Positions 11,993-63,338 of a stretch of 64,000 nucleotides of DNA are shown here, piece by piece. Under the pieces are notes generated by a model. The model searched no databases and was not told where the DNA came from. It worked only from the letters and a program-made list of their open reading frames with translations. Position 1 is the first letter of the stretch. Every line of letters starts with the position of its first letter. Origin of the DNA: Thermoplasmata archaeon (GTDB taxonomy: Archaea; Thermoplasmatota; Thermoplasmata; Lutacidiplasmatales; UBA184); NCBI GenBank assembly GCA_035501555.1, contig DATJWA010000013.1, positions 60,276-124,275 of the forward strand, written 5' to 3'. The translations under genes and the position numbers were made by a program.

Positions 11993-12065
11993 AGCCAAGG
12001 GAGGGAATCGAACCCCCAGGAAGCGGCTCTGCAGGCCGCCGCATTAACCATTCTGCCACCTTGGC
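11993..12065 (-). tRNA. tRNA-Cys (GCA)
   Basis: Folded by hand: acceptor GCCAAGG/CCTTGGC, anticodon stem GCGGC/GCCGC, loop CTGCAGA, T-loop TTCGATT. 73 nt, no intron. Confidence 0.8.
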
Positions 12066-37608: not shown

Positions 37609-37681
37609 GCCGCGGTGGCTCAGCTGGCAGAGCGGCTCCTTGGTAAGGAGCAGGCCGAGGGTTCAAATCCCTCCCGCGGCT
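37609..37681 (+). tRNA. tRNA-Thr (GGU)
   Basis: Hand fold: acceptor GCCGCGG/CCGCGGC, D-stem GCTC/GAGC, anticodon stem GCTCC/GGAGC with loop TTGGTAA, T-arm GAGGG-TTCAAAT-CCCTC. 73 nt. Confidence 0.85.
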
Positions 37682-40503: not shown

Positions 40504-40643
40504 CGTCTCCGTCAGCCGTTTCCATACAGGCACGACGGCCGACTGAGTGGCGGCTCGAGCCACGAGGGCGGCCGTGCTGCGAGGGCGGCCGCGAGCGCAG
40601 GCGTCTAGGCTGCTTCACCGACCGGTGGGGTCGAGAGCGGGCG

Positions 40644-41915
40644 GTGGGCTACGCGTCGGCTCCTCCCCTGTTTCGGGAAGGGAGACCCGCAGGTCGGGCG
40701 GCAGAATTAACGGCGGTCGGGCCGATGTCGGACGGGATGGAAGGGCGTCGAACAAGGAGAAGCCGGTTGGTCGCTCCCCTTCTTCTGGCCGGCACTCTGC
40801 TTCTCCTCTCGACCCTCTTTCTGGGCTGGTACACGATCAACCTGAACTCGGGGACCTCGGTCTACCACGAGACCTTCTACTCGACGGTCGTCCGGCTCTC
40901 GGGCTCCCAAGCGGGAAGTTCCTATTCTAACGCGACCTCCTACGTTTCGGTTTTTCTCGGCGACACCGGCATTCTGTATCTCACCGTCAGCGGGCTGGTG
41001 GTCGCCGGAGTAGTGGTCGGTTTGTTGGCTGTGTACCTCGTCTGGAAAGGGACCACCCAGAGACATCGGAAGCTCGTTCCCACCCTGGTGGCCTTGGTGG
41101 TCGCTTTCGCTCTGGCAGGACCCATGCTAGTTGGAGTGGTCCAGCCCGCAACACTCTGCCAGGGAGGGGGACCCCCGCAGAGTACCCCGCTCGCCGCATC
41201 GTCTCCGAGCCTCATGGCCGGGCCCTCCTCCAGCTGCTCGTGGGTCGTCGCCTCTCCTTCCCAAGGGGGAACCCTTTACGACTCCGGAAATGGTCCAGGG
41301 CCCCAGACTTCCTTCTACGGTTCCTCGAGCGTGGGGGGACAGCCCCTCACCTGGGGACCCTCCATCGGTTGGTTTGTCGCGGTCGTCGCCTCCACTCTCC
41401 TCATCGCGGGGGCTGCCCTCGATCTCCAGCAACTGGGAAGCTCTACGCGCCCTCAACTGGTGAGGGCCCGATTTGCCGCCCAGACCGGTCTGGCATCAGC
41501 TGGGCTCCTGGTGCTTACTGGGCTGCTCCTGTTCTGGTTCGACTCCCCAGCCTGGCCCTCCTACCAAACGATCCCGTGCGGCCTGATGAGCTGCCACCTG
41601 TATCCGTACAGCGAGATGCTCTCCGGATCTCAGGCCTTCGTCTTCGTCTGCCTCGTCGTCGCCCTGGTCGCGGTCGCGGCCCTCCCGAGATTTTGGGCTT
41701 TCGGAATCGGCACCGGAGCCCTCGCCTTGGTGGCCCTCTGGTTGCTGGCGGGCTCGTTCGGAGCCGCCGACACCCCGGGTGGGGCGTACGCCTGGGGGCT
41801 GGGATCCGTGTTCGTCGGCGGAGCTCTAGCGATTGCTGCTTCTATGGTTATCCGACAGACATACCGCCCGAAGCGCGGAGAGACTCGAATGGGAGCCTCA
41901 CCTCAGAGTTCATAG
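40644..41915 (+). CDS. Polytopic membrane protein (unknown)
   Basis: 8+ hydrophobic segments with Ser/Gly/Pro-rich loops. The start is probably downstream (MSDGMEGRR). Confidence 0.4.
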   Translation: MGYASAPPLFREGRPAGRAAELTAVGPMSDGMEGRRTRRSRLVAPLLLAGTLLLLSTLFLGWYTINLNSGTSVYHETFYSTVVRLSGSQAGSSYSNATSYVSVFLGDTGILYLTVSGLVVAGVVVGLLAVYLVWKGTTQRHRKLVPTLVALVVAFALAGPMLVGVVQPATLCQGGGPPQSTPLAASSPSLMAGPSSSCSWVVASPSQGGTLYDSGNGPGPQTSFYGSSSVGGQPLTWGPSIGWFVAVVASTLLIAGAALDLQQLGSSTRPQLVRARFAAQTGLASAGLLVLTGLLLFWFDSPAWPSYQTIPCGLMSCHLYPYSEMLSGSQAFVFVCLVVALVAVAALPRFWAFGIGTGALALVALWLLAGSFGAADTPGGAYAWGLGSVFVGGALAIAASMVIRQTYRPKRGETRMGASPQSS

Positions 41916-42450
41916 CGCCCTGAACCGGTTGCGTCCTCCTTCCACTCTGCCCCGGCCTCCCTCGGTGACCCAAACGCGCAGCGAACGCGCCCAACGGAGG
42001 GCCGGTGGATCTCGACCCCGAACGGGGCGAGCGCGGCGAGACGAATCCATAAGCCGAAGGTGTTCCGACACCTCCCCGCAGGGCAGCACCGCTGGACAGC
42101 TATCACTGCGGCCGTGGCCGAGTGGGTCGCTCGGGTCTATCGACATGGGAAGGGGTACCGGGTCGTGGTGGAGGGCCTCCTCGATTTCGACGCTGATCAG
42201 CTGGAGGGGATTGAGGAGCAGACCGCCGCGGCGATTTTGGCGCGGCTCCGGACGTCCTATCCGTCACGTGCTAAGCCATGGAGGGACGCCACCGCAGAGC
42301 GAGTCATGGAGTTCGAGGTGGCGGTTCAACGGGTCCCGGCAGACACGTCGGACTGCGAACCAACAGCGTGACTGATGCCTCCGCTCAACGCGGCCGGCAC
42401 GACGCGCCACGGAACCTCCGTGCGGTCGGTGCGCAATAGTACAAGCCACC

Positions 42451-42750
42451 TTGGGCACTTATCCATGGGGGCCCGTTTCCATGCGGTCGGAGATGAGTCA
42501 AGCCACGGCGTTGCTCGTTCTTGTCTGCTTGATCATCGGGACGGTACTGGTGGTGACTGCTGACGAGGTCTTCCGTACCCCCACCTCCTGCGTGAGCCTG
42601 GAGGGGACGTGCACGCCTCCCCCCCTTCCATGGTCGACTCTAGTGGTGGCCGGCGTTTTCCTCGCGATTGGGATCGCTTCGTTCGCGGTGGGCGCACTTA
42701 ACCTGCTACGCTGCGTCCCTCGCATTCGCAAGGCCTCCGGGCAACCCTAG
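42451..42750 (+). CDS. Small 2-TM protein (unknown)
   Basis: 99 aa with two hydrophobic helices and a Cys/Pro-rich loop. Coding status uncertain. Confidence 0.3.
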   Translation: MGTYPWGPVSMRSEMSQATALLVLVCLIIGTVLVVTADEVFRTPTSCVSLEGTCTPPPLPWSTLVVAGVFLAIGIASFAVGALNLLRCVPRIRKASGQP

Positions 42751-42969
42751 CGGACTCCCCCGGGGTCGCCCTCGTGCGAGCGCCACCGACCGTCCCGGGA
42801 GTTCGTCAAGCGTGATGGATTGGGACCTCTGTATTGGGCCAGAAGCGGAGCGCCTTTCGTCCCGGCCTCCGGTCGATACGAAGGCCTTTCTCGCGAGCCA
42901 TTGCGAGGAGCGCGTCGAACGCCTCGGGAGTCAGGGGTGGCTTAATCTAACGGAGGTCGGTCTCGGGTC

Positions 42970-44910
42970 GTGGCCACCACCCGACGGCTCGCCGCCATCA
43001 TGTTCACCGACACGGTCGGCTACACCGCGGCGACCCAAGCCGACGAGGGGCGCACCCTCGACCTGCTCCGCCAGCAGGCGGAGCTGGTCCGGCCCCTGGT
43101 CGCCGTGCACCAGGGGAGAGAAATCAAGTCGACCGGGGATGGCTTCCTGGTCGAATTCGACAGCGCGCTGAAGGCCACGCAATGTGCGGTGAGCATCCAG
43201 CGGCGCATTCACGAGAGGAATGCGGAGGGAGGTCTCGCGCCCATTCGAATCCGGATCGGCATTCACCTCGGGGACGTCGTACAGAGTGGCGCGGACATCC
43301 TGGGTGACGCGGTGAACATCGCCGCCCGTATCGAACCGATCGCAGAGCCCGGAGGAATCTGCGTATCCGGCGCAGTCCAGGAGCAGGTACGGAACAAAAT
43401 CCCCGACAGACTCGAGAAGCTAGCACCGACGGCCTTCAAGGGGCTTGAGCTACCCATGGATGTCTATCGGCTCGTATTGCCGTGGACCGTCGGCGAGCGG
43501 GCTTCCGAGGACCACGGTGCCTCCCCGACCGACAAGAACCGGATCGCCGTTCTGCCGTTCGTGAGCATGAGCCCGGACCCGAACGACGAGTACTTTGCCG
43601 ATGGCCTTACCGAGGAGCTGATCGCCAACCTGGCGCTCGTCAAGGGGCTCAAGGTGATCGCCCGAACGTCGGTGATGGAGTACAAGAGGAAGGAGAAGCA
43701 CGTCTCGGCGATCGGAAAGGAGTTGGGGGTAGGGACCGTCGTGGAAGGCAGCGTTCGGAAAGCCGCGAACCGGATCCGCGTCACGGTACAGGTCATCGAC
43801 GTCGCGACCGAGGAGCATCTGTGGGCTTCGAAGTACGATGACACGCTCGACGACATCTTTGCGGTGCAGAGCGACATCGCGACGAAGGTCGCCGCGTCGC
43901 TCCCGAGCAATCTGGCTCCCACTCCGGCCCAGGTGCCGCCGCTCCAGGAGACCCGAGATATGCCGGCGTATCTCCATTTTCTCCAAGGGCAGGCCCTCGT
44001 TTGGCAGCGCGAGGAGGTCCCCATCCGACAGGCCCTGCGTTTCTTCGAGCAGGCGGTCGAACGCGACCCGAGCTTTTCCAGGGCCTACGCCAGCATCGCC
44101 CGGGCCTACAAACAGCTCGGTGAGGAGGGACTCATCTCCTGGTCCGAGGCGATCGTTCAAGGGAAGGCGGCGGCCGAGAGGGCCATCCGGATCAATCCCA
44201 ACTTGGCGGAGGCCCACGCCATGTTGGCGGAGCTGTCGTTCATGGCGGACGACCCCACCGAGTTGCAGGAGAGAGAGGCGAGGAAGGCCCTGGAGCTGAA
44301 CCCGAATCTCGCCGAGGCCCACGATATCCTGGGCCAGATCGCGGGAATCAAAGGAGACCTACGCTCGTACGTCCGATACATCGAGGAGGCGTATCGGTTG
44401 GACCCGCTCTCTCCGCCGTCGATACGGTACCTCGGAAGGGCGTACTGGCTGGCGGGCCGGGAGGAGGAGGCCCTGGAGCACTGGAAGAAGACGCTGCATC
44501 TCGACCCGATTACTTCCTACCACGGCCTGAGCGACTACTACATTGCCAAGGGGGACCTCGAAAAGGCGGCCGAGATGACGAAAGAGATGGAGAGAATCGC
44601 GCCGACGAATCGACTCACCTACCTGAAGCGCGGGTACCTCGCTGCCCTGCGGGGAGACCGGACGACCGCGATGGAGATGATCGCCAAGCTCGACGCGGCT
44701 CACGACAAAGGCTGGGTAACGTCCCCGTACGCCGGATTCATCTATCTCGCTCTCGGAGACCTAGACAAATTCTTCGACTACATGTTCGCCGCCGTCAAGA
44801 CCCACACACTCCCTTTGAGCACCCTCCTGTTCTCTCCTCTCTTCGTCGACGCACGGAAGGACCCCCGATTCGAACAGGTGGTTTCGCTCGACCGTCAGCT
44901 CAATCCGTGA
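42970..44910 (+). CDS. Class III nucleotidyl cyclase (CHD) - TolB_N-like - TPR multidomain protein
   Basis: CHD motifs FTDTVGYT, KSTGDGF and GDAVNIAARIE. A TolB-N-like segment (IAVLPFVSMS..EYFADGLTEEL...GSVRKA.NRIRV), then 6+ TPR/Sel1-like repeats. 646 aa. Confidence 0.8.
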   Translation: MATTRRLAAIMFTDTVGYTAATQADEGRTLDLLRQQAELVRPLVAVHQGREIKSTGDGFLVEFDSALKATQCAVSIQRRIHERNAEGGLAPIRIRIGIHLGDVVQSGADILGDAVNIAARIEPIAEPGGICVSGAVQEQVRNKIPDRLEKLAPTAFKGLELPMDVYRLVLPWTVGERASEDHGASPTDKNRIAVLPFVSMSPDPNDEYFADGLTEELIANLALVKGLKVIARTSVMEYKRKEKHVSAIGKELGVGTVVEGSVRKAANRIRVTVQVIDVATEEHLWASKYDDTLDDIFAVQSDIATKVAASLPSNLAPTPAQVPPLQETRDMPAYLHFLQGQALVWQREEVPIRQALRFFEQAVERDPSFSRAYASIARAYKQLGEEGLISWSEAIVQGKAAAERAIRINPNLAEAHAMLAELSFMADDPTELQEREARKALELNPNLAEAHDILGQIAGIKGDLRSYVRYIEEAYRLDPLSPPSIRYLGRAYWLAGREEEALEHWKKTLHLDPITSYHGLSDYYIAKGDLEKAAEMTKEMERIAPTNRLTYLKRGYLAALRGDRTTAMEMIAKLDAAHDKGWVTSPYAGFIYLALGDLDKFFDYMFAAVKTHTLPLSTLLFSPLFVDARKDPRFEQVVSLDRQLNP

Positions 44911-45110
44911 GGATGTGCTGGTCGCTCTCGGTGCCCCCCTTCAGCTCAAGATGTAGACCCCGATCGAGGGTTCAGCCAAACGATCCGGATCTCGGAGTGG
45001 GGCGAGAGAGCGGTCCCACCAGGGCTTGTGGAAGTCGAGCCAAGTCAGGCCGCGCAGCCGCCTGCGCTCCGCTTGAGGTAGCCCCCCTCGGCCGGGTTGC
45101 GAGCGGATGG

Positions 45111-45845
45111 CTACGCCCGTCCCTTGGAGGGAGGCGGCAGGAATTTCTCTAAGATTGCTGCAATGGGTTGAACGTCCCTCAGCTGATGGGCCTTTCCCGC
45201 CGCGAGCGGCCCAGCGGAGATGCCTCTCTCGCACTGGACGGTCGCGTCTCGCCAGTCGGTCGGGCTGTGTCCCTCGACGTGGAGAATCACATCGAATATC
45301 GATGTGTGGGTGGTAGGTGCTTCGGCCCACAGGGCTACCTGGCAGGTTCCGGATTCCAGCATCGCACGCATCAGAGGAGCAATTCGCTCGGGGGAGTATA
45401 CCGTGGCAAGGCGTTGGGCGTTCGCCGTTACAAGAATCGACGGTGCGTCCACCCGACCCGTGGCCGAGATCAGCTTCTGGGCGTGCGAAGGCATGCGAAG
45501 AAACTCCACGAGGCCTTGAATCGAATGCGAGGGCTCATCGGACCTGAGCATGGTCGCCGCAGCCCCCTCCGCCCGCTGGGCCTGGATGTCGTCCGGCTGC
45601 AGCTCACGGGGGGAGAGGACGTAGACCGAGTCTTCGGGAACCGCGTGAACGGTCATGGGGTCGAGAGGGTCGAGAATCTCTCCCGGGAGCCGAACGTCGG
45701 TCCAGTAGACCCGCGAGCCAAAAGGGGCGAGAGCAGCGAACGCGAACCACTTCAGCAACGATCGGCTGGTCCCCGCGATGAAGACGGAGGACGGCTTCCC
45801 GAAGACGCCGGGGAAAAGTTCGACGGTCGGTGGCGCCCCCCCCAC
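45111..45845 (-). CDS. Hypothetical protein, possibly degenerate RecA/KaiC-like fold
   Basis: Spacing resembles the KaiC/RadB core (GV.G....VFIAGTSRS..., SVYVLS.EL), but no intact Walker A. Weak assignment. Confidence 0.3.
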   Translation of the reverse strand: MGGAPPTVELFPGVFGKPSSVFIAGTSRSLLKWFAFAALAPFGSRVYWTDVRLPGEILDPLDPMTVHAVPEDSVYVLSPRELQPDDIQAQRAEGAAATMLRSDEPSHSIQGLVEFLRMPSHAQKLISATGRVDAPSILVTANAQRLATVYSPERIAPLMRAMLESGTCQVALWAEAPTTHTSIFDVILHVEGHSPTDWRDATVQCERGISAGPLAAGKAHQLRDVQPIAAILEKFLPPPSKGRA

Positions 45846-46065
45846 AGACAGTCAGAACTGCCATCTCCCCTTAAGAACCTGACCGCCGCCCCACGGAGGC
45901 GCGACTCCCTCCGGGGGAGAGCGCGCCGGGTCAACGCTCCCTTTCAACCGTCGCCTTGAACGGTCTGTCCAACCCCTCTCGACGGCTGATTCCCCACCGG
46001 CGGCTCGACCGCGAGTGGCTGGGGGGTGATCAATCGGGAAGACTGGTGCTCGGTCTCCGGTCAAC

Positions 46066-47415
46066 TCAGAGGCCGACAAGGAGAAACACGAACAGCAACG
46101 CGAGCGTGATCGCCGTGAGGGGAAGACCCACTCGTACGAACGATCGGAGGCCGATGCGTACGCCCGCTCGCTCCGCCTGCTGGACCACGATCAGATTGCT
46201 CGCCGCCCCGAGAAGGGTGAGGTTGCCGGCCAGGGTGCTGCCACCGGCCAGCGCCACCCACACCAACGGCGTTCCGGCACCATATCCGACCGACCGAAGT
46301 ATCGGAATCTGAAGCGCCACCCAGGGAACATTGCTGACGAGCTGAGAGCCTCCCAGACTTGTCAGCAGGATGGCTCCGAGCGCCGTGACGGGGTGAGCCG
46401 GACCAGGGACGGGCAGGATTCCCTCGATCGCGGAGAGCACCCCGCCGTTGGAGGCTCCAGCCACCACGACGAACAGGGCGCCGAAGAGTACCAGGATCGA
46501 CCAATCCACCCGGCCGAACAGTTCCGAGCGACCGGGGCTTGCCACCAGCGTGACGATCGCCCCCCCGAGCGCAATCAGATACAGCGGGGCGGCAGGGCCT
46601 CCGGTGACGGCCGCGACAACGTCCACGGTGATCAGGGCGAGGATGGTTACCGGGAAGACGACCAGGGTAGGGTACCGCCGGGCCAGAGGAAGGATAGGGG
46701 TACTCGGGAAGAGTCGTGGGCGGGCCACCGGGGGGCCCTCGGTGGACCCCGACTCCTGAGCGATCCGACGGCCGTACACCCGTCGGAGGTAGAGCCCGCC
46801 CACGAGCAGGTTCACGAGGGTTGGGAGGAGCAGGTACCGGAGGAAGGTCGCCAGCGGAGAGCTGAGTCCGCTCCCCAGGGACACCAACAGGTTTTGTGGG
46901 TTCCCGAACGGCGTGGCGACGCTCCCGACCGTTACCGAGAATGCGAGGGTGAGGAGAAGCGGCTCCGCGGAAACGCGCATCCGACGGGCGAGGGCGAACA
47001 GGAGCGGGACCCCCACTAGGACCAACGCGTCGTTCAGGACGAACGCGGAGAGGATTCCGATCGCCACGAACAGGACGAACGGGACATCGGCCGGCCTTCG
47101 TGCCGTCCCGAGCACCCAGAGCGCGAGATGGTCGAGGGCGCCGGCCTGTTCGAGCCCGGCGGCGAACAAGAACAGGGCAAACAGGAAGATCAGGATGGAG
47201 AGGTTCGACCCGACTGCGGCGGACGCCGCCGAGATCGGAAGAACTCCGCTGGCCACCATGAGGAAGGCCCCGACGAGGAACACCACCCATATCGGTGGAC
47301 CACGCCGGAGGAGTTGTCGGGCGATGACCGCGCCCACGGTCGCGCCGAGAATCCCTGCCGCGATCGCGTCCACCTCTGGGCCCCCGGGTGAGGCAACCGC
47401 AATCGGGTGAGCCAC
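46066..47415 (-). CDS. ArsB/NhaD-superfamily anion permease
   Basis: 12+ TM helices, with the TPFGNPQNLLV motif typical of ArsB_NhaD/CitMHS permeases. Confidence 0.7.
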   Translation of the reverse strand: MAHPIAVASPGGPEVDAIAAGILGATVGAVIARQLLRRGPPIWVVFLVGAFLMVASGVLPISAASAAVGSNLSILIFLFALFLFAAGLEQAGALDHLALWVLGTARRPADVPFVLFVAIGILSAFVLNDALVLVGVPLLFALARRMRVSAEPLLLTLAFSVTVGSVATPFGNPQNLLVSLGSGLSSPLATFLRYLLLPTLVNLLVGGLYLRRVYGRRIAQESGSTEGPPVARPRLFPSTPILPLARRYPTLVVFPVTILALITVDVVAAVTGGPAAPLYLIALGGAIVTLVASPGRSELFGRVDWSILVLFGALFVVVAGASNGGVLSAIEGILPVPGPAHPVTALGAILLTSLGGSQLVSNVPWVALQIPILRSVGYGAGTPLVWVALAGGSTLAGNLTLLGAASNLIVVQQAERAGVRIGLRSFVRVGLPLTAITLALLFVFLLVGL

Positions 47416-47894
47416 TAAAGATTCTCGAAGCCCAGCCGAGTTCGGTCGCCCCGAGGCGCACTTTGCAGGATCGATCGGGGGCGGTGGGCGATCCCCACCC
47501 GACTCCTAGTGGATGGATGCGCCCCGGGAGCTCCGCGCTCCACCGGGGATGTCCTCTCGGAACATGTCGGCGGACGGGGCGCCGAGGCCTGGGATCCCCC
47601 GGGAATTCGATTCCGCCGCCGATCAGGGCTGAACGCGGGAACCCACGGGTTCGGCGACTGGTCCTAGTCCCGGCGGCCTGACGGTCGGTCCACCTGGCCC
47701 GAAGGCCTTCGCGCCGATTCGCACGGGATGGAATAAGCGGTGCTTCAAGCCCCTCCCGCGGAGATGTGTCCGCCCGCCCCGATGCTCCCGTCCGCTGCAG
47801 GTCCTCCCCTGGGCGGGGTCGGTCCTTATGGGGGGGATGCAGCGTGGACTTTGAGGCCTCGTTCGGACTTTCGAATGTGGTGGGAGAGCGAAAG

Positions 47895-48629
47895 ATGAGC
47901 CGAACCCGGCCCCTCATGTTCCATCGGCTGGCCCCGTACTATGACCACCTGGTCGGGACCAAGGATTACAGGTCGGAATCTAGGTTCCTCGAATCCCTCG
48001 CGCGAAGGCTCGTTCGTTCCCGAGGGCGAGCCTGGCTGGACGTGGCGTGCGGGACCGGAAGACATCTGAGCTTCCTCCGCCGACACTACACGATTACCGG
48101 GGTCGACGTGAGCCGCGAGATGCTCCGGCTGGCCCGACGTCGTCTTCCCCGAACCCGCTTGGTTCGCGGGGACATGAGGAGCTTCCATCTGGACGAGAGG
48201 TTCGACGTGATCAGCTGCCTGTACAGTGCGATAGCCCACCTGAGGACGGAACGGGACCTCGAAGCGACCTTGGTGAATCTTGCTCGCCACCTGAAGCCAG
48301 GCGGCGTCGTGATCATCGAGCCGTGGATCGACCCCGCGGACTTTCGGCAAGGGTTTGTTCACCTGCTCACTCACACCACCCGCTCGGTCACGGTCGCCCG
48401 CATGGCCTTCTCCTCCCGTCGGGGGAGGCGCTCGGCGGTCCACTACCACTATCTGATCGGTCGGCCGGGTCGTCGGGTCGCGCATTTCGAGGAGGTGGAC
48501 ATCGGACTCCTGGTGCCTCGAAGACGCCTGCTGAAACTCATGCGGCGCACCGGCCTGACCGCGCGCTTCCTGAAACGGGGGCTTCCCTCCGGTCGGGGCT
48601 TGCTGCTGGGACTCAAGGGCCCCAGGTAG
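47895..48629 (+). CDS. Class I SAM-dependent methyltransferase
   Basis: LDVACGTGRH (motif I) and DVISCL (motif II). Start at ATG 47895; the ORF track begins earlier without support. Confidence 0.7.
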   Translation: MSRTRPLMFHRLAPYYDHLVGTKDYRSESRFLESLARRLVRSRGRAWLDVACGTGRHLSFLRRHYTITGVDVSREMLRLARRRLPRTRLVRGDMRSFHLDERFDVISCLYSAIAHLRTERDLEATLVNLARHLKPGGVVIIEPWIDPADFRQGFVHLLTHTTRSVTVARMAFSSRRGRRSAVHYHYLIGRPGRRVAHFEEVDIGLLVPRRRLLKLMRRTGLTARFLKRGLPSGRGLLLGLKGPR

Positions 48630-55146: not shown

Positions 55147-56133
55147 TCAAGCCGAGAGGTCGGTGGGCCGCCGGAAGAATCCGGACCTCAGACGCATCTC
55201 GCCGGTCGAGCGGTCGATCTCTCCCCGCACCCCGACCGTGCGACCGAACATGCCCATCTCGACGATGTACCACGCGACCTCGAAGACGCTTCCCCGGGCG
55301 ACCGCTTCTCCGGCGTGGGCGCGTAGGGCCATCCAGCGGTTCTTCGACATCGCGGTCGCGTACGTGCGCTCGAGCGCCTCTTGGGGTGAGTGGACTGGAC
55401 CGGCGGTGGCCGGCACTTTCGCCACCTCCATCGAGCGCTCCGGGGCGGGAGCCTTCTCCCCGAACCGGTAGCGGCGGTATCGGATGCGGTACCGGTCGGC
55501 CGTGTCCTGTTGGTCGATGAGGGTCCAGACCCGCGGGTTGGTGGTCGGCGCGACGGAGGTGTACCCTTCGCGCGTGCGGACGACCCCGGCGCGCCACCGC
55601 GCGACGCCCCGGAGGAGCAGGTATCCGCCGTAGACCGCCGCCAGGATCCACGCGGTCTCGACCCAGATCGTGAACGGCACGTTCCCCCGCTCGAGGATGA
55701 GCGTCACCATCGTCACCGTGGTGAGGGTGAGCATCGCCACGTTGATCGCGACGTCCGCGTCAAGCCTTAGCCGGCGCAGCGAGAGCGGCAGGAACGGGGT
55801 CACGGCGAAGTGCGTGAACCCGTCGAGGAACACGTGGGAGAGGCCCCCGATCTCCATCGCCGCGAAGTAGCCGAGCGTCGAGGCGTGGGTGAAGTACGGC
55901 AGGTACGGGACCAGAAAGCACCCGACCCCCGCGACGACCGTGACCCCGAGGATCGAGTGGGTGATCCCGTGATGCTGAAGGATGGGGAATCGCCGGGAGA
56001 GGGGGAAGAGCAGCGCGTCCGCGTCCGGCAAGCCCCCCGCGAGGGCGCCGGCGGCGATGAACTGCGGAGCCCCGGGCCCCCAGATCACGAAGGAGAGCAG
56101 GTAGGCGAATACAACATGCGTGAAGAGGTCCAT
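55147..56133 (-). CDS. Membrane-bound metal-dependent hydrolase (DUF457/YdjM-like)
   Basis: LFTHVVFAYL ... HHGITHS ... FLDGFTH His motifs in a polytopic protein. Confidence 0.6.
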   Translation of the reverse strand: MDLFTHVVFAYLLSFVIWGPGAPQFIAAGALAGGLPDADALLFPLSRRFPILQHHGITHSILGVTVVAGVGCFLVPYLPYFTHASTLGYFAAMEIGGLSHVFLDGFTHFAVTPFLPLSLRRLRLDADVAINVAMLTLTTVTMVTLILERGNVPFTIWVETAWILAAVYGGYLLLRGVARWRAGVVRTREGYTSVAPTTNPRVWTLIDQQDTADRYRIRYRRYRFGEKAPAPERSMEVAKVPATAGPVHSPQEALERTYATAMSKNRWMALRAHAGEAVARGSVFEVAWYIVEMGMFGRTVGVRGEIDRSTGEMRLRSGFFRRPTDLSA

Positions 56134-56144
56134 GATGCGCGGGC

Positions 56145-56696
56145 CTACTCCCTGCCGGGCGCTGGGGGGCCGGTGGGAGCGGCGTCGTGGGCCAGCATCT
56201 CCGCCAGCCGGTCCAGGTCAGCGTTCCGGAGGCCGATCACCCGCCGACCGTCCAAACGGGCCGAGGGAATCCCGTCGCGGAAGAGCACGATCGTCGGGGT
56301 GATCCGGATCTGGAATGTGTCCCACAGCGGGTCGTCGAGGTCGGTGATGTCCGCCATCGCCAGCTGCGCCGGAAGGTGACCGCTTCGAGCCACGAACTTT
56401 GGCACGAACCCCCGGGTGGGAGGACACCAGGTCGCGCCAAAGCACACTGCATACCTCCCCTCGCGCTTCAAGCGGGTCCCGTCGAAGTCGCCCGTCCGCA
56501 GGACCTCGAGACCGGTGCTCTCCCAGCCCTGCTCCCGCTGTTGGGTCACCCTGCGCCTCCCGTGGAACGGCCGCTCGGGGTTCCTCACGCCGCGCAGGGT
56601 ATAACCTCCGAGTGTCGAGGACGAGGGTCGGTGGCGTTGGAGTAATGCGGCGCGACGGACTGCACGTCGCATGCCCGCCGGACGCCCCCTTCGCAC
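56145..56696 (-). CDS. Thioredoxin-fold protein with single-Cys WCPPT motif
   Basis: FGATWCPPTRGF in the CxxC position but with the second Cys replaced by Thr. cis-Pro region follows (ITPTIVLF). Start uncertain. Confidence 0.5.
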   Translation of the reverse strand: MRRGRPAGMRRAVRRAALLQRHRPSSSTLGGYTLRGVRNPERPFHGRRRVTQQREQGWESTGLEVLRTGDFDGTRLKREGRYAVCFGATWCPPTRGFVPKFVARSGHLPAQLAMADITDLDDPLWDTFQIRITPTIVLFRDGIPSARLDGRRVIGLRNADLDRLAEMLAHDAAPTGPPAPGRE

Positions 56697-57030
56697 GCCG
56701 AGGCGACTTACGATCGTCCTCGCCCAATGGTGCCCGCACTGCGTCCCGCTTTCCGTGCGGGAGGGTCGCCGATTGGCCTCCCGACTTCACGTCCCCCTCC
56801 GCATCCTGGACATCGACAAGCGCGGTCAGGTCCAGGTCGCCGACCGGCTCGTTCGAGACTTCGGGGACCCCTCCCCGGACTATCTGATCCCCCAGGTCTT
56901 CCTGGAATGGTCCGACGGAGGGGTCGAACCGTTGCTGACCGGCTTCTCCGAACGGGTCGCCCGCACCGAGCGTGCGTGGCGCGACCTCCTCTCCAGCGAT
57001 TGGTTGCGGTCGCTTGCCCGGGGAGGATAA
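56671..57030 (+). CDS. Thioredoxin/glutaredoxin-like protein (WCPHC)
   Basis: AQWCPHCVP active site. The 5' ends of this and the previous gene overlap divergently. Confidence 0.5.
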   Translation: MPAGRPLRTPRRLTIVLAQWCPHCVPLSVREGRRLASRLHVPLRILDIDKRGQVQVADRLVRDFGDPSPDYLIPQVFLEWSDGGVEPLLTGFSERVARTERAWRDLLSSDWLRSLARGG

Positions 57031-57591
57031 GCATGCCCAGGGCCGGCGCGCTTCCGCCAACCCTTCGGACCGCGCTGGTCGCCCCCGGCGGAGAGTGCTA
57101 TCGGCACTGCGACCGACCGGTCCGGACCCGGCGGGTCGCGAACCGCCTCCCCGGGGTCTGGGAGGTTCGCGCGTGCCCGTCCGGGGTCGTGTCGCTCACC
57201 TCCTACTCAGAATGGACCCGGCGCGACCCGACCCCAGCGGTTCGAGCGGTCCTCCGATCCTGGACAGTGCCCCCGGCGCTGGTCCGTCGATGGGACCTGA
57301 GACTGGCCACTCGACGCGGTCCGGAGCTCGGTGGCCCGGCCGAGCGGTACCTCGCTTCGGCTCGACCTCGGAGGGGAGTGCGGGTGGTCTACTGGAGGGT
57401 CTACCCCTTTCGCGCCCGTGACGGATCGGAGCGCAGGCTCTTCGTGTGCTTCCGACGGGCGCATCGCTCCCCGGTCTTCTACTCCGCCTCGCCTACCGAC
57501 GGGTCGTCGGGCTGCCCGGTGTGCAAACGGAGACGTAGGTCCGCGGCCCGTTGAGCGGCTCAACCCGATCGGTCGGGTCCAGCGAGGCCGC

Positions 57592-58053
57592 CTACCTCCG
57601 TACGAGGAACTGGACCGTGCAGTGGGCCCACGCCTTCCGGCTCGCCCAGGGGTCGCCGTCGTAGACCTCACGGACCCCGGTCACCGACTTGATCGTCCCG
57701 TCCTTCCTCCGCCAGCGAAGCCAGTCGTTGAGCGCGTGGTAGACGACCCGCGAAGAGACGGCGTCCGGGTCGAACGTCACGCACGCCGCCCATGTCGGGG
57801 AGAGCGTCTTCAATCGGACCCGTCCTCCCACCTCGGCGGGGCCCCCGAGCTCGAGGCAGGCCTCCCACCGGTTCCGGTCTCGCTCGAAGAAGATCCAGCG
57901 ACCGGTGCGGACCTTTTGGCCCCGCGCCCACGCGATGAGCTCCCGAAACTCCGAGCGCAGATTGTCCTCCTTCCACGGCCCCACCCGCACGATCGACGCG
58001 ACACGGAACTTTGGCACTCGCTGGATGAAGAATTCGACCACCATGGACCTCAC
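57592..58053 (-). CDS. GyrI-like / AraC effector-binding-domain-like small protein
   Basis: ~150 aa duplicated beta-alpha-beta-beta fold pattern. Weak, pattern-only assignment. Confidence 0.4.
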   Translation of the reverse strand: MRSMVVEFFIQRVPKFRVASIVRVGPWKEDNLRSEFRELIAWARGQKVRTGRWIFFERDRNRWEACLELGGPAEVGGRVRLKTLSPTWAACVTFDPDAVSSRVVYHALNDWLRWRRKDGTIKSVTGVREVYDGDPWASRKAWAHCTVQFLVRR

Positions 58054-58156
58054 CTAGAGGACGTACCCCGCTCGATGAACGTGGAGGAGCAACATACCCT
58101 TAGAGCCGTCCGGGGGCGGGCGGACCTAATTAACCCAACGGGCGAATCGGGGAGCG

Positions 58157-58999
58157 ATGAGCGTGGTCGAGGCGCAGGTGCGAGTCCACCATCCGTGCCC
58201 CTACTGCGACATCTCGTGCGAATTCCCTCGCTCGCTTCTCCTGCTGTGGTGCGATAACCGTCGGGATATCTTCCTGGTTTCCGCGCCGGATGAGTCCGAG
58301 CTCCGCGAGGTGCTCGCGGCGCTCCGGGACTCCTTCCACGCCCGGGCCCTCGTGGTGGACGGCAAGGACGCCCTGGTGACCATCCCCGACTTCGAGTGGG
58401 CGGAGCCCCCCTCCGTGACGGGCCTAGCTCGGAAGACGGGGGTCTGGGTGCTCCACCCCGTGATCTATTTCGGCGGCACGGAGACCTATCGCCTGATGGC
58501 CCCCTCGAAGCGCGAGTTGAACGACCTGGTCTCGCGGGTGCGACGCCTGGGGGACGTCGAGATCCGGTCGGTCACCGACCGGGGGACCCTCGAGCGGGTA
58601 CGGGACCTGCCGACGGCCTCGGTCCACTTCTTCGAGGGCCTGACGGACCAGCAGGCCCGGTCCCTGGTCGCGGCCTTCGAGAGCGGTCTGTTCGACGTCC
58701 CCGCCCGGACGAGCTGGGATAACGTCGCCCGGGGACAGGGGCTCTCCCGCTCGACCTTCGGGGAGCACCTTCGAAAGGGACAGCTCCGGCTGCTGACCAA
58801 CAGTTACCCGTCCCTGAAGGCGCGAAGCGAGCAGGCCGCCGAGCCGCTCCTCCTGCCCGCGACCCCGGCGCGCCACCCTCCGGCCCGGAGACCGCTCCAG
58901 GGTACGCGATCCCCCGAAGGAGAGGCTGGGGTTTCGCGAGAGTCCCCGAGCGACGAGCGTCACTCCTTCGCGACGCCCCGGGGTCGACGCGCCCCGTAG
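58157..58999 (+). CDS. HTH_10 (Bat-like) archaeal transcription regulator
   Basis: C-terminal HTH_10 (LTDQQARSLVAAFESGLFDVPARTSWDNVARGQGLSRSTFGEHLRKGQLRLL). The N-terminal domain has an HPCPYCD metal-binding-like start. Confidence 0.6.
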   Translation: MSVVEAQVRVHHPCPYCDISCEFPRSLLLLWCDNRRDIFLVSAPDESELREVLAALRDSFHARALVVDGKDALVTIPDFEWAEPPSVTGLARKTGVWVLHPVIYFGGTETYRLMAPSKRELNDLVSRVRRLGDVEIRSVTDRGTLERVRDLPTASVHFFEGLTDQQARSLVAAFESGLFDVPARTSWDNVARGQGLSRSTFGEHLRKGQLRLLTNSYPSLKARSEQAAEPLLLPATPARHPPARRPLQGTRSPEGEAGVSRESPSDERHSFATPRGRRAP

Positions 59000-59679
59000 A
59001 GACCGAGCCCCTGGCGGCCGACAGGGCGGGTGTTCCACCCGAGTGCCCATTTCCCCAGCGCCTCGCACAGTCCCCCGCCGGGGCCGTGATCGACGATCGC
59101 GACCGCGCCGGGCGGGAACAGCGGGTCGAGGACCCGGAACTCGCGACGGGTTGCGTTGTCCTCGTGGGGAACGTCGTAGACGAGCAGGTCGATGGAAGGA
59201 AGCTGCTCGGCGAGGATCGGGAGAACGTCACGCTTGTCGCCGAGTCGAAGGTCCCAACGCTGCCGCAGGGGAACAGGAACCGCCCACCCCGAGCTTCGTC
59301 CCGGAGGAAGGGTCCAGGAGATTCGGGAGTCCGACTTCCCGGGCCGGCGTTTCGGCGGGAAGGCGGGCAGGTCGATCGAATGGAGCCTCCCCTCGCCGTT
59401 CTGCTCGAGGGCCTTCAGCATGTAGGCGGAGGAGACCCCGGAGGAGACCCCCACCTCGACCACGTGGGCGGGCCGGAGCAATCGCACCAGCGCGTGGAGC
59501 TCGAGCGGGGCGTCGATCTCGACGTAGGAGGTCCGACCCGCGCGGGCATGCGAGCGCGCCAGCTGAGAGAAGAGGCGTCGCTCTCCCGCTGCCTCGGCGA
59601 GCGCGTGCTGGGACTCCTCCGCCCCGCGGCCGCTCAGCTCCGCGACCCAGGCAGGGTCCGGGTCGGACTCGACCTGCAT
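58960..59679 (-). CDS. Class I SAM-dependent O-methyltransferase (TylF/MycF-CmcI-like)
   Basis: VVEVGVSSGVSSAYM motif I, then LLVYDVPHED. Confidence 0.6.
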   Translation of the reverse strand: MQVESDPDPAWVAELSGRGAEESQHALAEAAGERRLFSQLARSHARAGRTSYVEIDAPLELHALVRLLRPAHVVEVGVSSGVSSAYMLKALEQNGEGRLHSIDLPAFPPKRRPGKSDSRISWTLPPGRSSGWAVPVPLRQRWDLRLGDKRDVLPILAEQLPSIDLLVYDVPHEDNATRREFRVLDPLFPPGAVAIVDHGPGGGLCEALGKWALGWNTRPVGRQGLGLYGARRPRGVAKE

Positions 59680-59692
59680 CGCGGGTCACCCG

Positions 59693-60136
59693 CTAGGCCT
59701 GCTCGAGCTCGCCCGCGTTCCCTATCCACTCTCGGGCTTCCTCGACCTTGGGCCGGACGGCGCGGATCCGCTCGTACGCCTCCTTCAGGGGCAGCCCCTC
59801 CGCCCGGTGGAGGTACCACGCCGCCCCGAGGGGAGAGCGCCGCACTCCGTGACCGCAGAAGACGAGCACGGGCTGACCTCTCGAGCGGGCCGCGCCCATG
59901 GCGCGTGCGAGCTCGTCCAGGTTCTCCCGGAGGGGCCGGTCGGCCGACTCGTCGTAGATTCGAATGTGCGTGGCCGGCGGCATGTCCTCCGGCGGGTCGT
60001 CCAGGACGCAGAACCGGGCGCCCTCGAACCGCAGGGCATCGTTCCAGCCCCCGACGAACACCCCCGGGGCAAATTCCGAAGGGGTGGCCGCACGGGATTT
60101 CGCTTTGGGCTTGCTGACCTTTCTCGGGGCGACCAT
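59693..60136 (-). CDS. Dual-specificity / tyrosine protein phosphatase (CX5R)
   Basis: VLVFCGHGVRRSP is the HCxxGxxRS P-loop. 147 aa. Confidence 0.7.
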   Translation of the reverse strand: MVAPRKVSKPKAKSRAATPSEFAPGVFVGGWNDALRFEGARFCVLDDPPEDMPPATHIRIYDESADRPLRENLDELARAMGAARSRGQPVLVFCGHGVRRSPLGAAWYLHRAEGLPLKEAYERIRAVRPKVEEAREWIGNAGELEQA

Positions 60137-60233
60137 GGTCTACCTGCATCCTGGAGAACCCAGGTCGACCATCTGTCTTGGGCCGCCCGAGGGCGGATGG
60201 CCCCCACCAGCGGCGCGGGCCGGCTTGCTCCGT

Positions 60234-61532
60234 TCAGTCGCGCCCGTCCGCCGGCCCGAAGATCAACCCCTCGGCGACCTTCGGCAGGAACATCGTCGAC
60301 TTGTGGGCCATGACACGCCCGCTTCCGAAGGCGCGCTCCTCGATCCCAAGCTCCGTGATGGGTGGAAGGAGCAGTGCGGTCCCGTCTTCTCCGGGGTCCT
60401 GGCGGGTGGTGAGCCGGTCGAGCGCGGTCCGGGGGGACCGAACAAAGAGGAGCTCGTGCGGGTCGATGCCGAGGCTCGCCTCCAGGAACGAGTGCAGCAA
60501 GTCGAAGTCCGAGCCGACGTCCGACACCTCGGGGGTGCCGTGAACTTCGTAGAGCGCGTCGCCGTGCGCGGCGAGAAAACCGCGCCGTCCGGTGCGGTGC
60601 ATCTCCCGAAGGCGGCGAAGGGCGGCGGCGGGAGTCGGGGTCGCCGCCAGCCGGGCGACGTGCGGAAACGCCCTCTGGGCGCTACCGAGCACCTGGTCGA
60701 ACGGCCGGACCCGGGCCGGGAGGACGCGGTGCCAGGGCAGCACCCGAAGGGCCCGGTCCTGTCCGTCGACGAGCATCACGAGGGGGGCCGAGGGGCGACC
60801 CTGGTCGTGCCGCCGGGCGGCGGCCGTGTACCGATGGTGCCCGTCAAGCACGAGCAGGCGCAGCTCCGCGACGATCGCCCGGATCTGCGTAACGGACGGG
60901 CCGTCGTCGATCTTCCACAGTCGGTGCGTCGTTCCGTCCAGGGTCGCTTCGACGACCGGGGTCCGCGCGCTCTCGAACGCGAGACGCCGCCGATTGAGGC
61001 CGAGGAGCTGCTCGAGCAGGTCGTTCAGGCCGTGGTCCGGGAGGTGGTAGCCGGCCATGATGGGCGCGAAGCTCTTTCCGGTGGCCTCCGTGAGTGCCAT
61101 TCGCTCCTCGACGCGGTCGTCGAACGTGCGTTCGTGCAGGGCGACCGTCGTATGTCCGGCCCGTTCCAGGTCGAGGGCCCCGACCAGCCCGAGGAGAAGG
61201 TACTCCGCGCGACGCTCGTCCGGTTCGATCGTCTCCAGAACGTCCGCCGGCGGAACGTACCGGATCCCGTAGACGTAGTACGAAGGGCGCGGGTCGCGGA
61301 CGTAGGCCCCGTCGTGGAGCGCCTCGTCGAGCCGCGCCGCGGCCGTCTCGAGGAACCGAGGGAGCGGAAGGTTCCGGGGGCGAGGCACGAAGCGGGCCGC
61401 GTTGGACGGATGCCGGGCGTACCGACGGACGTCCTCGTCCGAGAGCGTGTCGTACACCGGGCAGACCAGACGGCTCGCTTCCCCGGCTTCCGGGTTCGGA
61501 TGCCAAGCGCGGACCGGAGATACCTCGACCAC
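60234..61532 (-). CDS. DUF1015 family protein
   Basis: The DUF1015 core (PVYDTLSDEDV, DGHHRY, LPWHRVL) starts near the proposed GTG (complement of 61530-61532). The upstream 220 aa of the 656-aa ORF look like an antisense artefact over the FNR-like gene. A CATATAGGG TATA-like box lies ~35 nt upstream. Confidence 0.55.
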   Translation of the reverse strand: MVEVSPVRAWHPNPEAGEASRLVCPVYDTLSDEDVRRYARHPSNAARFVPRPRNLPLPRFLETAAARLDEALHDGAYVRDPRPSYYVYGIRYVPPADVLETIEPDERRAEYLLLGLVGALDLERAGHTTVALHERTFDDRVEERMALTEATGKSFAPIMAGYHLPDHGLNDLLEQLLGLNRRRLAFESARTPVVEATLDGTTHRLWKIDDGPSVTQIRAIVAELRLLVLDGHHRYTAAARRHDQGRPSAPLVMLVDGQDRALRVLPWHRVLPARVRPFDQVLGSAQRAFPHVARLAATPTPAAALRRLREMHRTGRRGFLAAHGDALYEVHGTPEVSDVGSDFDLLHSFLEASLGIDPHELLFVRSPRTALDRLTTRQDPGEDGTALLLPPITELGIEERAFGSGRVMAHKSTMFLPKVAEGLIFGPADGRD

Positions 61533-61769
61533 GTGCGCGAACCGCCCCGCGGGCGACGGGCTCGCCCTATATGGCCCACCGGGGCGGAGCCGCGGGCCGA
61601 TCCCGCGGTCGATCCGATCGGACCGGACGGTCCCGAACCCAGTCAATATGCGCCCCGTGCCCCTGCTCCGGTCGTGGAGATCCGCCCGAGCCCCCCCAAA
61701 CCTGGCCCGTCTCCCCCCCGCAGGTTCCGACTCCCCTTCGTGAGCAGCCAGCCCGAGACTCCCACCTCG

Positions 61770-62435
61770 ATGACCTTCCGTTTCTCGACGCGAGGCACGG
61801 ACTTTCACTACCGCTCCAACCAGGCGGTTCGTCTCGTCCTTCCGGGGGTCCGGGACCCCTGGGGGCCCGCCCGCTCGTTCTCTCTCTCCTCCAGCCCGAC
61901 CGAGACCGACCTGATCTCGGTCACCGCGAAGATGACCGGCTCCCCGTTCAAGGAAGCGCTCCGGACCCTGCGTCCCGGGGAGGGGTGCGACGTCATCGGC
62001 CCCCTTGGCGACCTCCTCTTCGACCCCAGCCGGGACGCGCTGTTCATTGCCGGGGGCATCGGGGTCACCCCGTTTCGAGGGATGGCCCGGTACGCGGCGG
62101 ACACCGGTGCGAGCCGCTCGAGGGTCCTGCTGTACTCCGCCCGGACCCCCGAGGAGTTCGCCTTCCGGGACGAGCTCGACGCGATCGCGCGGGGTGACCC
62201 CCACCTAGCGGTCCATTACACCGTCACCCGACCGACGGAGTCTACGCGGCCGTGGACGGGCCGGACCGGCCGCATCGACCTGCACTGGGTGCGAGAGGCC
62301 CTCTACGGGCTCACACGCCCCAAGGTCTACGTGGTGGGCCTTCCGGAGATGGCGCGCGACGTGCTGGCCTTCCTGCGAGACCCGCTCGGGGTCGTCGAGG
62401 ATGACCTCGAGTATGAGTACTTCATGGGTTACTGA
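61770..62435 (+). CDS. FNR-like FAD/NAD(P)-binding oxidoreductase
   Basis: RSFSLSS (RxYS FAD motif), GGIGVTPF (NAD(P) motif) and a C-terminal EYEYF-type tail. Confidence 0.7.
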   Translation: MTFRFSTRGTDFHYRSNQAVRLVLPGVRDPWGPARSFSLSSSPTETDLISVTAKMTGSPFKEALRTLRPGEGCDVIGPLGDLLFDPSRDALFIAGGIGVTPFRGMARYAADTGASRSRVLLYSARTPEEFAFRDELDAIARGDPHLAVHYTVTRPTESTRPWTGRTGRIDLHWVREALYGLTRPKVYVVGLPEMARDVLAFLRDPLGVVEDDLEYEYFMGY

Positions 62436-62441
62436 GAGCGG

Positions 62442-63116
62442 TTGATGACCCCCCACGAGACACTCCGTCGTGGCAGTTCGGTCCGCCATCGGTCGATGTG
62501 GAAGGCGACATACGAGGAGACACCGTACCGCGAGCTCCCCTGGTTCAGCCCCGAGCCGAGCCCCCACCTCGTCCGCGCCGTGGAGGAGGGGTTCCTCCGG
62601 CCGCGCTCTACGGTGCTGGATGTGGGGTGCGGGGCCGGCTCGAACGTCTTGTACCTTTGCCGGAGCGGTTTCCACGGTTATGGCGTGGACATCTCCCCGG
62701 GGGCGGTCCACGCCGCCCAACAGAGGGCGCGTCAGGAGGGGGTCGCTGCAGATTTTCGAGTGGGGGACGTACTCGCCCTAGACTTCCCCGACCGGAGCTT
62801 TGACGGGTTGGTCGACAACGGGTGCTTCCACACCCTCCCGACGCGTCGGCGCGGGGAGTATGCCGGCGAGATCCACCGGGTCCTCCGGCCCGGCGGCAGC
62901 TTTGTCCTCTCCTGGGTCGCGCGCGAACACACGGCCGCTCGGGGCCCACGCCACCGGCTGTCCCTGGAGGAGGTGACCCGGAACTTCGAGCGTCGCTTCC
63001 TGTTCGTCCGGACTGCCTTCCATCCGCCGGGGACGGAGCGCGGACCGGCCGTCTACGACGCGTGGCTCTCCCGGCGCGACCGCCCGCAGCCTCCACCCTG
63101 GTCCCCCCCGGGTTGA
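62442..63116 (+). CDS. Class I SAM-dependent methyltransferase
   Basis: VLDVGCGAGSN motif I and DGLVDNGCFH post-II region. 224 aa. Confidence 0.7.
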   Translation: MMTPHETLRRGSSVRHRSMWKATYEETPYRELPWFSPEPSPHLVRAVEEGFLRPRSTVLDVGCGAGSNVLYLCRSGFHGYGVDISPGAVHAAQQRARQEGVAADFRVGDVLALDFPDRSFDGLVDNGCFHTLPTRRRGEYAGEIHRVLRPGGSFVLSWVAREHTAARGPRHRLSLEEVTRNFERRFLFVRTAFHPPGTERGPAVYDAWLSRRDRPQPPPWSPPG

Positions 63117-63235
63117 CGCCGGCGCCGGGGGGTCCGCCCCCTGGCCCCCGGACGCCCCATCTTCCGGCGCAGCGGGAACGGGGCCCGACGCGCCGGGTGG
63201 AAGCTCATATACAGAGCCCTCCATGGCCGCGCCGC

Positions 63236-63338
63236 AGCGGGGTAGGGTAGTCAGGAAAGCGGTCGGCGTCGCCGGCCGTCCTGAAATCCCGACGGGCTCA
63301 TAACCCGTAGATCCATGGTTCAAATCCATGCCCCGCTA
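63236..63338 (+). tRNA. tRNA-Met (CAU), initiator-like (A1:U72), with ~27-nt non-canonical intron in the D-loop
   Basis: Acceptor AGCGGGG/CCCCGCT, anticodon stem ACGGG/CCCGT (three G:C pairs) with loop CTCATAA, T-arm CATGG-TTCAAAT-CCATG. The D-region closely matches haloarchaeal tRNAiMet (GGGT AGTCAGGA ... ATCC), except for an extra palindromic insert (GGTCGGC-GTC-GCCGGCC) around 63259..63285. Total 103 nt. Confidence 0.6.

Follow-up and report, generated by a model that had tools for sequence, protein, structure and literature searches.

Short bulge-helix-bulge (BHB) introns at non-canonical positions of archaeal tRNA genes, the D-loop included, are well known, and tRNAscan-SE 2.0 was built to find introns that are not canonically placed (PMC8450103). 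The closest published case to the gene described here is the pre-tRNA-Glu(UUC) of Methanopyrus kandleri, which carries a non-canonical HBh′-type BHB intron at position 20b/21 in the D-loop (PMC5829648). The two cases have in common a short intron in the D-loop just 5′ of nucleotide 21, a relaxed motif made up of a single intact bulge, a 4-bp helix and an inner helix, and a euryarchaeal host; splicing is by protein in M. kandleri and would be so here. They differ in the tRNA, which is the initiator here and tRNA-Glu in M. kandleri, and in the host, which is a mesophilic soil member of the Thermoplasmata as against a hyperthermophilic methanogen. The intron described here is, furthermore, fixed in more than 100 species and is not accompanied by a second (canonical) intron. 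[quoted passage not shown]

The D-loop intron in the pre-tRNA-Thr(UGU) of Aeropyrum pernix and the introns of Thermoproteales and Crenarchaeota resemble the present one in that the BHB lies outside position 37/38 and that its removal restores the cloverleaf (PMC3241643, PMC4090602, PMC8450103). Their hosts possess an (alpha-beta)2 endonuclease that bears a specificity loop, and each genome contains many such introns. The other two tRNA genes in the window (the whole 64 kb stretch of DNA that was analysed) are, by contrast, intron-less, and the host group has been described as confined to strict alpha'2 enzymes and canonical introns. The disrupted tRNA genes of ARMAN-2 and the Micrarchaeota likewise hold introns that are non-canonical and of the relaxed-BHB type, and their lineage branches within or close to the Euryarchaeota (PMC3239211, PMC3488258); in ARMAN-2, introns occur in 56% of the tRNA genes and the splicing endonuclease EndA is a three-unit epsilon2 enzyme with a lysine-bearing insert. 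The canonical intron at 37/38, in its strict hBHBh′ form, has the same 3-4-3 spacing on its intron side and is presumably handled by the same two enzymes, EndA and RtcB; the present intron differs from it in its D-loop position and in lacking the outer helix h.

Literature searches disclosed no account of this intron, nor of any tRNA intron in the Lutacidiplasmatales; the paper describing the Lutacidiplasmatales, for which tRNAscan-SE was run, leaves introns unmentioned (PMC9287336). What is apparently new is a relaxed-motif D-loop intron fixed in the initiator gene across a large clade of soil Thermoplasmata, a group believed to contain few misplaced introns.

The gene and its insert

The 103 nt at positions 63236-63338 (plus strand) of the window read as an archaeal initiator tRNA-Met gene, AGCGGGG-UA-GGGU-AGUCAGGAAAGCGGUCGGCGUCGCCGGCCGUCCUGAAA-UCCC-G-ACGGG-CUCAUAA-CCCGU-AGAUC-CAUGG-UUCAAAU-CCAUG-CCCCGCU-A. 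We consider it very probable that they encode the precursor of the initiator tRNA-Met of a high-GC soil member of the Thermoplasmata (Lutacidiplasmatales-like), with a D-loop intron that is removed via a relaxed BHB. The parts of the gene and of its upstream region are the following:

63196-63204, plus strand: purine-rich stretch directly upstream of the TATA-like box
63205..63212, plus strand: TATA-like putative promoter box TCATATAC, 24-31 nt upstream of the mature 5′ end
63236..63257, plus strand: 5′ exon, gene positions 1-22, comprising AGCGGGG, U8 A9, the 5′ strand GGGU of the D-stem and the D-loop sequence AGUCAGGAA
63252..63255, plus strand: 5′ strand of helix H (C17 A18 G19 G20), which pairs with 63280-63283 and contains the universal D-loop G18 G19
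63256..63258, plus strand: 5′ bulge B1, AAA, unpaired in the MFE structure; predicted 5′ splice site 63257/63258 by the BHB rule
63258..63285, plus strand: predicted intron AGCGGUCGGCGUCGCCGGCCGUCCUGAA, 28 nt, the removal of which gives a 75-nt tRNA-Met(CAT); length from the intron-less homologues
63259..63279, plus strand: intron hairpin h′, a 9-bp stem GCGGUCGGC/GCCGGCCGU with the loop GUC, displaying covariation
63280..63283, plus strand: 3′ strand of helix H, CCUG, with which the intron ends; without variation among the 61 aligned sequences
63284..63286, plus strand: 3′ "bulge" B2, AAA, which faces A14 G15 U16 in an internal loop; predicted 3′ splice site 63285/63286
63286..63338, plus strand: 3′ exon, gene positions 51-103, comprising A21, UCCC, G26, the anticodon arm, variable loop, T-arm, acceptor strand and discriminator A
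63299..63301, plus strand: anticodon CAT, between the stem pairs G29-C41, G30-C40 and G31-C39; called by ARAGORN on the spliced form

The acceptor stem AGCGGGG...CCCCGCT has 7 bp, with an A1:U72 pair formed by the A at 63236 and the T at 63337, and is followed by the discriminator A; an encoded CCA is absent from the 3′ end of the gene. The anticodon arm ACGGG-CUCAUAA-CCCGU holds CAU in an uninterrupted 7-nt loop, the variable loop AGAUC has 5 nt and the T-arm is CAUGG-UUCAAAU-CCAUG. All the parts that the first-pass annotation had called canonical, namely the acceptor, the CAU anticodon arm with three G:C pairs, the variable loop and the T-arm, are accordingly present in the sequence. The insert is not at the canonical 37/38 location, the anticodon loop being intact and the insert lying in the D-loop. 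At minimum free energy (-54 kcal/mol, z = -5.2) the 103 nt are predicted to fold into a cloverleaf whose D-arm is extended, and none of 200 dinucleotide shuffles reached this stability.

In the extended D-arm, C17-A18-G19-G20 pairs with C45-C46-U47-G48 to form helix H (CAGG/CCUG) at a pair probability of at least 0.999. A21-A23 is a clean 3-nt bulge in the MFE structure, and G24-C32 pairs with G36-U44 in a hairpin closed by the loop GUC; the near-perfect hairpin GGUCGGC-GUC-GCCGGCC noticed earlier is present and extends to these 9 bp. Downstream of G48 follow A49-A51, U52 and the 3′ strand CCC of the D-stem. The intron-side spacing is 3-4-3, as in the archaeal bulge-helix-bulge motif. The second AAA is placed opposite A14 G15 U16 and forms with them an internal loop, not a clean 3-nt bulge. 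The folding model adds a fifth pair, U16-A49 (probability 0.99), giving a 3x3 loop, and the strict 4-bp register is 2.8 kcal/mol costlier than this fold. Both the position of the 3′ splice site outside a clean 3-nt bulge and the preference of the model for a 5-bp helix run counter to a simple BHB reading. The outer helix h is absent, the D-stem GGG/CCC being separated from the motif by a 3x3 or 4x4 loop, and since no outer helix is directly stacked, the strict hBHBh′ form is excluded and the relaxed form is compatible. As modelled, the insert fits a relaxed HBh′-type BHB motif in published nomenclature (PMC5829648, PMC3239211). Folding of the proposed junctions had been suggested as a check, and a BHB-like motif is indeed present there in its relaxed form. 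The relaxed BHB that the first-pass annotation thought possible in CAGGA...TCCTG stands as a motif; its helix is, however, the 4-bp CAGG/CCUG with AAA on each side and not a 5-bp CAGGA/UCCUG.

Cuts at equivalent positions of the two AAA stretches remove 28 nt (63258-63285), which places the intron at 20a/21 in the D-loop by Sprinzl numbering, and five cut registers, possible through the repeated G/AAA, yield an identical 75-nt product. The predicted exon-exon junction joins ...AGUCAGGAA to AUCCCGAC..., and the 30-mer across it is GGGTAGTCAGGAAATCCCGACGGGCTCATA. The junction was set from the BHB geometry together with intron-less homologues. Placement of the junction by ARAGORN was tried and rejected, as 247 of 433 variants with 18-39 nt deleted from the 5′ half were accepted, a result that confirms tRNA-Met and cannot fix the junction. 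A group I or group II self-splicing intron, the catalytic core of which takes hundreds of nucleotides, was likewise rejected, the insert being just 28 nt long and matching no Rfam intron family.

The intron-less homologues are two archaeal initiator tRNA genes on IMG/VR contigs (L143 and L144). Both have exactly 3 nt from CAGG to the 3′ strand of the D-stem, and this spacing gives an intron of 28 nt, instead of the ~27 nt first estimated, and a mature tRNA of 75 nt before CCA addition. The 5′ exon (63236-63257) is identical to the L143 gene, and the predicted spliced product, compared with L143 over its first 47 nt, differs from it at a single D-loop base. The D-arm sequence that the first-pass annotation had recognised in the 5′ half, apart from the insert, is present. 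With gene positions 23-50 deleted, the resulting 75-nt form is reported by ARAGORN as tRNA-Met(CAT) and is a canonical cloverleaf with G18 G19 in the D-loop and the T-loop UUCAAAU.

The maturation of this tRNA may be depicted as follows. Transcription would proceed from the gene's own TATA-box promoter. In the precursor, C17-A17a-G18-G19 of the D-loop would pair with CCUG at the 3′ end of the intron into a 4-bp central helix, flanked on one side by the 3-nt AAA bulge and the 9-bp hairpin, and the second AAA would lie in the internal loop beside the D-stem, as in the relaxed HBh′ form. EndA would then cut both AAA stretches, at Sprinzl 20a/21, and an RtcB-type ligase would join the exons. G18 G19 would by this be freed for the tRNA elbow, resulting in a canonical 75-nt initiator tRNA to which CCA would be added. 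That the intron is spliced is inferred from its anatomy, the conservation of the motif, the covariation in the hairpin and the match to the intron-less homologues.

The interrupted gene in related genomes

When each species, represented by a single genome, was scanned for 5′ and anticodon motifs of the initiator type with an insert of 13-43 extra nt between them, at least 119 loci matched. At least 110 of these share the same exons with the window, and nearly all of them belong to MAGs from soil or peat labelled "Thermoplasmata archaeon"; among the carriers are Ca. Lutacidiplasma silvani AcS3-62, a Ca. Lutacidiplasmatales MAG, UBA184, UBA61 and the complete chromosome OY970259.1. The G+C content of the clade loci is 0.61-0.76 (median 0.69), that of the window is ~0.70, and the Lutacidiplasmatales have been described as ~69% GC (PMC9287336). 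The taxonomic hint towards Thermoproteales that was first drawn from the intron is replaced by a host among the soil Thermoplasmata (Lutacidiplasmatales/UBA184-like, GC ~0.70) (PMC9287336). The exons are 100% identical to those of the nearest relatives and the flanking DNA is at most ~73% identical to theirs; the flank of the window aligns to two of the clade MAGs at only 73% identity, and the window accordingly represents a distinct member of the clade.

Conservation in at least 110 other genomes excludes chance. Among the 111 genes compared (the at least 110 listed and the window), B1 is AAA in 107, the 3′ strand of helix H is CCTG in 107 and B2 is AAA in 108. The hairpin occurs in 95 distinct sequences of 19-25 nt in the same 111 genes listed, and all of them fold. 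A gap-free alignment could be made of 61 distinct 103-nt genes. In this alignment the exon columns are invariant except for 9 (A/G) and 22, each of which is at least 90% conserved. The A1:U72 pair is kept in 61/61, as are, invariantly, the three G:C pairs 29-31/39-41 (gene positions 59-61 with 69-71), and variable columns of the intron are confined to positions 24-44. All four pairs of helix H are found without variation in all 61 sequences. In the hairpin, 7 of the 9 pairs display changes on both sides, and 94.5% of the cells are paired. None of 500 column shuffles matched the covariation score, and by sliding the 3′ partners 1-3 columns the paired cells decreased from 98.5% to at most 48%. 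To judge from the sequences, the splice motif and the stem are selected and the intron sequence is free, which is the pattern expected of an intron. The central claim of the first-pass annotation, a 103-nt initiator-like tRNA-Met gene with a non-canonical D-loop intron, is well borne out by exons and a motif that are near invariant in 111 sequences beside a hairpin that varies and yet stays paired.

All 107 homologues with a long enough upstream flank have A or T at positions -29 to -26, in surroundings of ~75-80% G+C. The position of this box fits that of an archaeal TATA box, and the A/T-rich stretch is by this analogy the probable promoter of the gene.

The insert might instead be retained, so that the mature initiator tRNA would carry an extra D-arm stem-loop as a structural expansion. 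In its favour, the MFE cloverleaf includes the extended D-arm, which is very stable, but we regard this explanation as highly unlikely. The unspliced fold locks G18 G19 in helix H (probability at least 0.999) and leaves no D-loop/T-loop contacts, and contacts through G18 G19 are used by every cytoplasmic tRNA. An expansion needs no exact 4-bp helix with flanking AAA, whereas these are kept in 107-108 of the 111 genes while the rest drifts; the exons, moreover, still match intron-less initiator tRNAs. It is the sequestration of G18 G19 in helix H, together with a 3-4-3 geometry conserved amid drift, that makes retention unlikely relative to removal of the insert as an intron.

Also to be weighed is that the gene is a disrupted, non-functional copy and that an intron-less initiator gene elsewhere in the genome does the work. 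Our view covers 64 kb of the host genome and 8 kb per relative, and the default tRNA predictors make no call on the gene, both of which would suit such a copy. Against it stand the preservation of 75 exon positions and of the promoter box and the compensatory substitutions in the hairpin, in more than 100 species with flanks at most 73% identical, and we find this explanation very improbable compared with a working gene that is spliced.

Initiator tRNA genes with an insert at the same D-loop site were also found at L015:451-560 and L062:6331-6435 (Micrarchaeota), and same-site inserts in Promethearchaeia/Asgard at L043:2347-2451, L068:2959-3062 and L085. The architecture of CAGG, 3 nt, hairpin, CCUG and 3 nt is common to the Micrarchaeota locus L062 and to two loci of other Thermoplasmata (L070 and L114), and the Asgard inserts differ in appearance from these three. 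The occurrence of the same site in Micrarchaeota and Asgard MAGs raises the question of its age: it is either ancient or a recurrent target (hot spot) of insertion.

Two of the loci, L054 and L112, both from the MAG JOPF061 (JASHPY01), have the same intron and upstream flank and different downstream flanks, which points to duplication of the gene or to a bin of mixed strains. The interrupted gene was also detected on a contig (L029, JASIAO010000353.1, 3041 bp) that is binned in a MAG labelled "Acidobacteriaceae bacterium", most likely through contamination of the bin. The exact sequence of exons and motif offers a convenient metagenome marker for the clade.

Initiator identity and tRNA prediction

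The A1:U72 pair and the pairs G29-31:C39-41 are hallmarks of initiator tRNAs, archaeal and eukaryotic. The motifs AGCGGGG and GGGCUCAUAACCC were found by the same pattern scan to be common to the initiator genes of other archaeal phyla. On these sequence features the gene is identified as an initiator, with a predicted role in initiation (aIF2 binding, exclusion from elongation). The archaeal and eukaryotic initiator hallmarks have been treated before (PMC8450103).

The anticodon CAU is common to three tRNA classes, which would allow the gene to be an intron-bearing elongator tRNA-Met or a tRNA-Ile2 (CAU, agmatidine-modified); this is hardly credible in the light of the A1:U72 and G29-31:C39-41 pairs, which mark initiators, and of AGCGGGG...GGGCUCAUAACCC, which recurs in the initiator genes of other phyla.

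Neither default ARAGORN nor Rfam at the gathering threshold reported the gene at 63236-63338. The Rfam tRNA model gave a partial match at 63268-63331, covering the anticodon and T arms only, with 23.9 bits against a cut-off of 29, and at a permissive threshold no additional tRNA fragments were found by Rfam in the whole window. In intron mode (-i), ARAGORN called the loci L001-L119 as Arg(CCU) (n = 42), Phe(GAA) (n = 23), Met(CAU) (n = 21) and, in addition, Cys, Gly, Ser, Trp and others, and this inconsistency across orthologues identifies the calls as artefacts of forcing the intron into the anticodon loop. The fold reported by ARAGORN -i on exactly the same coordinates of the window, a 95-nt tRNA-Arg(CCU) whose anticodon loop holds an 8-nt intron and whose extra arm is long, can be dismissed, since its anticodon stem is mismatched, the real anticodon arm is used as its variable arm and the orthologues receive the assorted calls just given. 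ARAGORN had been proposed as a check on the gene; it fails on the unspliced form, with no call by default and the Arg(CCU) artefact in intron mode, and succeeds on the spliced 75 nt, which it calls tRNA-Met(CAT).

For annotation this means that default ARAGORN and Rfam overlook the initiator tRNA of an archaeal order widespread in soil, that ARAGORN in intron mode mistypes it, and that such genomes can appear to lack an essential tRNA or to carry spurious ones.

The splicing endonuclease and the surroundings of the gene

HBh′ introns of the D-loop are cut efficiently by the A. pernix (alpha-beta)2 enzyme with its specificity loop and poorly by the A. fulgidus alpha'2 enzyme and the loop-less enzyme of M. 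kandleri (PMC5829648). Cluster II Euryarchaeota, the Thermoplasmata included, have been reported to possess alpha'2 enzymes only (PMC5829648), and Euryarchaeota with alpha4 or alpha'2 endonucleases to have canonical introns only (PMC4090602, PMC5829648). The poor cutting by alpha'2 enzymes and their reported sole presence in Cluster II speak against splicing of the insert. By analogy with this published biochemistry, an endonuclease of broad specificity, as the first-pass annotation had proposed for the host, is a reasonable prediction (PMC5829648). A relaxed-motif intron that runs through a whole order of the Thermoplasmata, and in an essential tRNA, offers a natural test of the rule that introns and endonucleases coevolve, and the interest of the case would rise if the clade had a strict-type enzyme only and no second initiator gene.

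EndA was not found in the window or in the 119 related loci by phmmer with the M. jannaschii sequence or by HMM search, and neither was the gene for TrpRS, which is the neighbour of EndA in the archaeal contig L141, in the window and the same 119 loci. A profile search with diverse EndAs returned a list of mostly methanogens that held no lineage information. When metagenomes were scanned for the catalytic motif, written as a GC-biased codon pattern, TACK-type alpha subunits, epsilon2-type three-unit enzymes and one Methanopyrus-like enzyme came up, and none from the intron-bearing clade; EndAs of Thermoplasmata differ from the scan pattern at two motif positions.

A representative search with the alpha'2 enzyme of Geoglobus, followed by two profile searches, led to GC-rich contigs (0.64-0.69) encoding two-repeat alpha'2-like EndAs of ~350 aa, several of which are labelled "Thermoplasmata archaeon". 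The seven EndA contigs that were looked up have MAG accessions outside the list of intron-bearing genomes, and the EndA of the complete chromosome OY970259.1 was absent among the matches listed. The catalytic Tyr-His loop has 7 residues in P0271, compared with 9 in M. jannaschii, 10 in A. fulgidus and 14 in ARMAN-2, and the short loop in the related representatives aligned argues that they contain no insert of the ARMAN type. No epsilon2 enzyme of GC-rich Thermoplasmata was found in the EndA searches.

It is conceivable, though we hold it to be rather doubtful, that an HBh′ intron resides in the sole initiator gene of the whole order (Lutacidiplasmatales and relatives) and that, at the same time, the sole EndA of the order is an ordinary loop-less alpha'2 enzyme. 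If true, this would break the rule that relaxed, misplaced introns coevolve with enzymes of broad specificity. The alpha'2 enzymes might then handle HBh′ substrates well in vivo, a cofactor or RNA chaperone might remodel the precursor, or the splicing of the initiator tRNA might be a deliberately slow, regulatory step.

On the GC-rich Thermoplasmata contigs L145-L159 the gene for the alpha'2-like EndA was observed in two conserved neighbourhoods. One has the order purS-purL-purQ-endA-alaX-like and the other consists of a PDDEXK_19/HTH_3 gene, endA, a HAD hydrolase and an amidohydrolase. A homologue of the PDDEXK_19/HTH_3 gene (41-46% identity) is located in L114, at ~1.8 kb upstream of the intron-bearing initiator tRNA gene as estimated from coordinates. 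Three-unit epsilon2-like EndAs are encoded on five JGI metagenome contigs with G+C contents of 0.56-0.61 (L121, L125, L136, L138 and L140), in ORFs of 347-409 aa, that of L138 being cut by the contig end. The catalytic region of these five enzymes is close to that of ARMAN-2, and the epsilon2 type may be more widely spread than the literature suggests.

The genes that adjoin the tRNA gene, at positions 55150-63113 of the window, encode a YdjM-like membrane protein, an HTH_10 regulator, two SAM methyltransferases, a dual-specificity phosphatase and a DUF1015 protein; no tRNA-processing genes are among them. The G+C content drops to 0.647-0.653 at positions 40001-48000, as compared with ~0.70 elsewhere in the window. 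ARAGORN and Rfam identified an intron-less tRNA-Cys(GCA) at 11993-12065 (minus strand) and an intron-less tRNA-Thr(GGU) at 37609-37681 (plus strand), the latter tRNA being found also in 25 of the related 8-kb loci.
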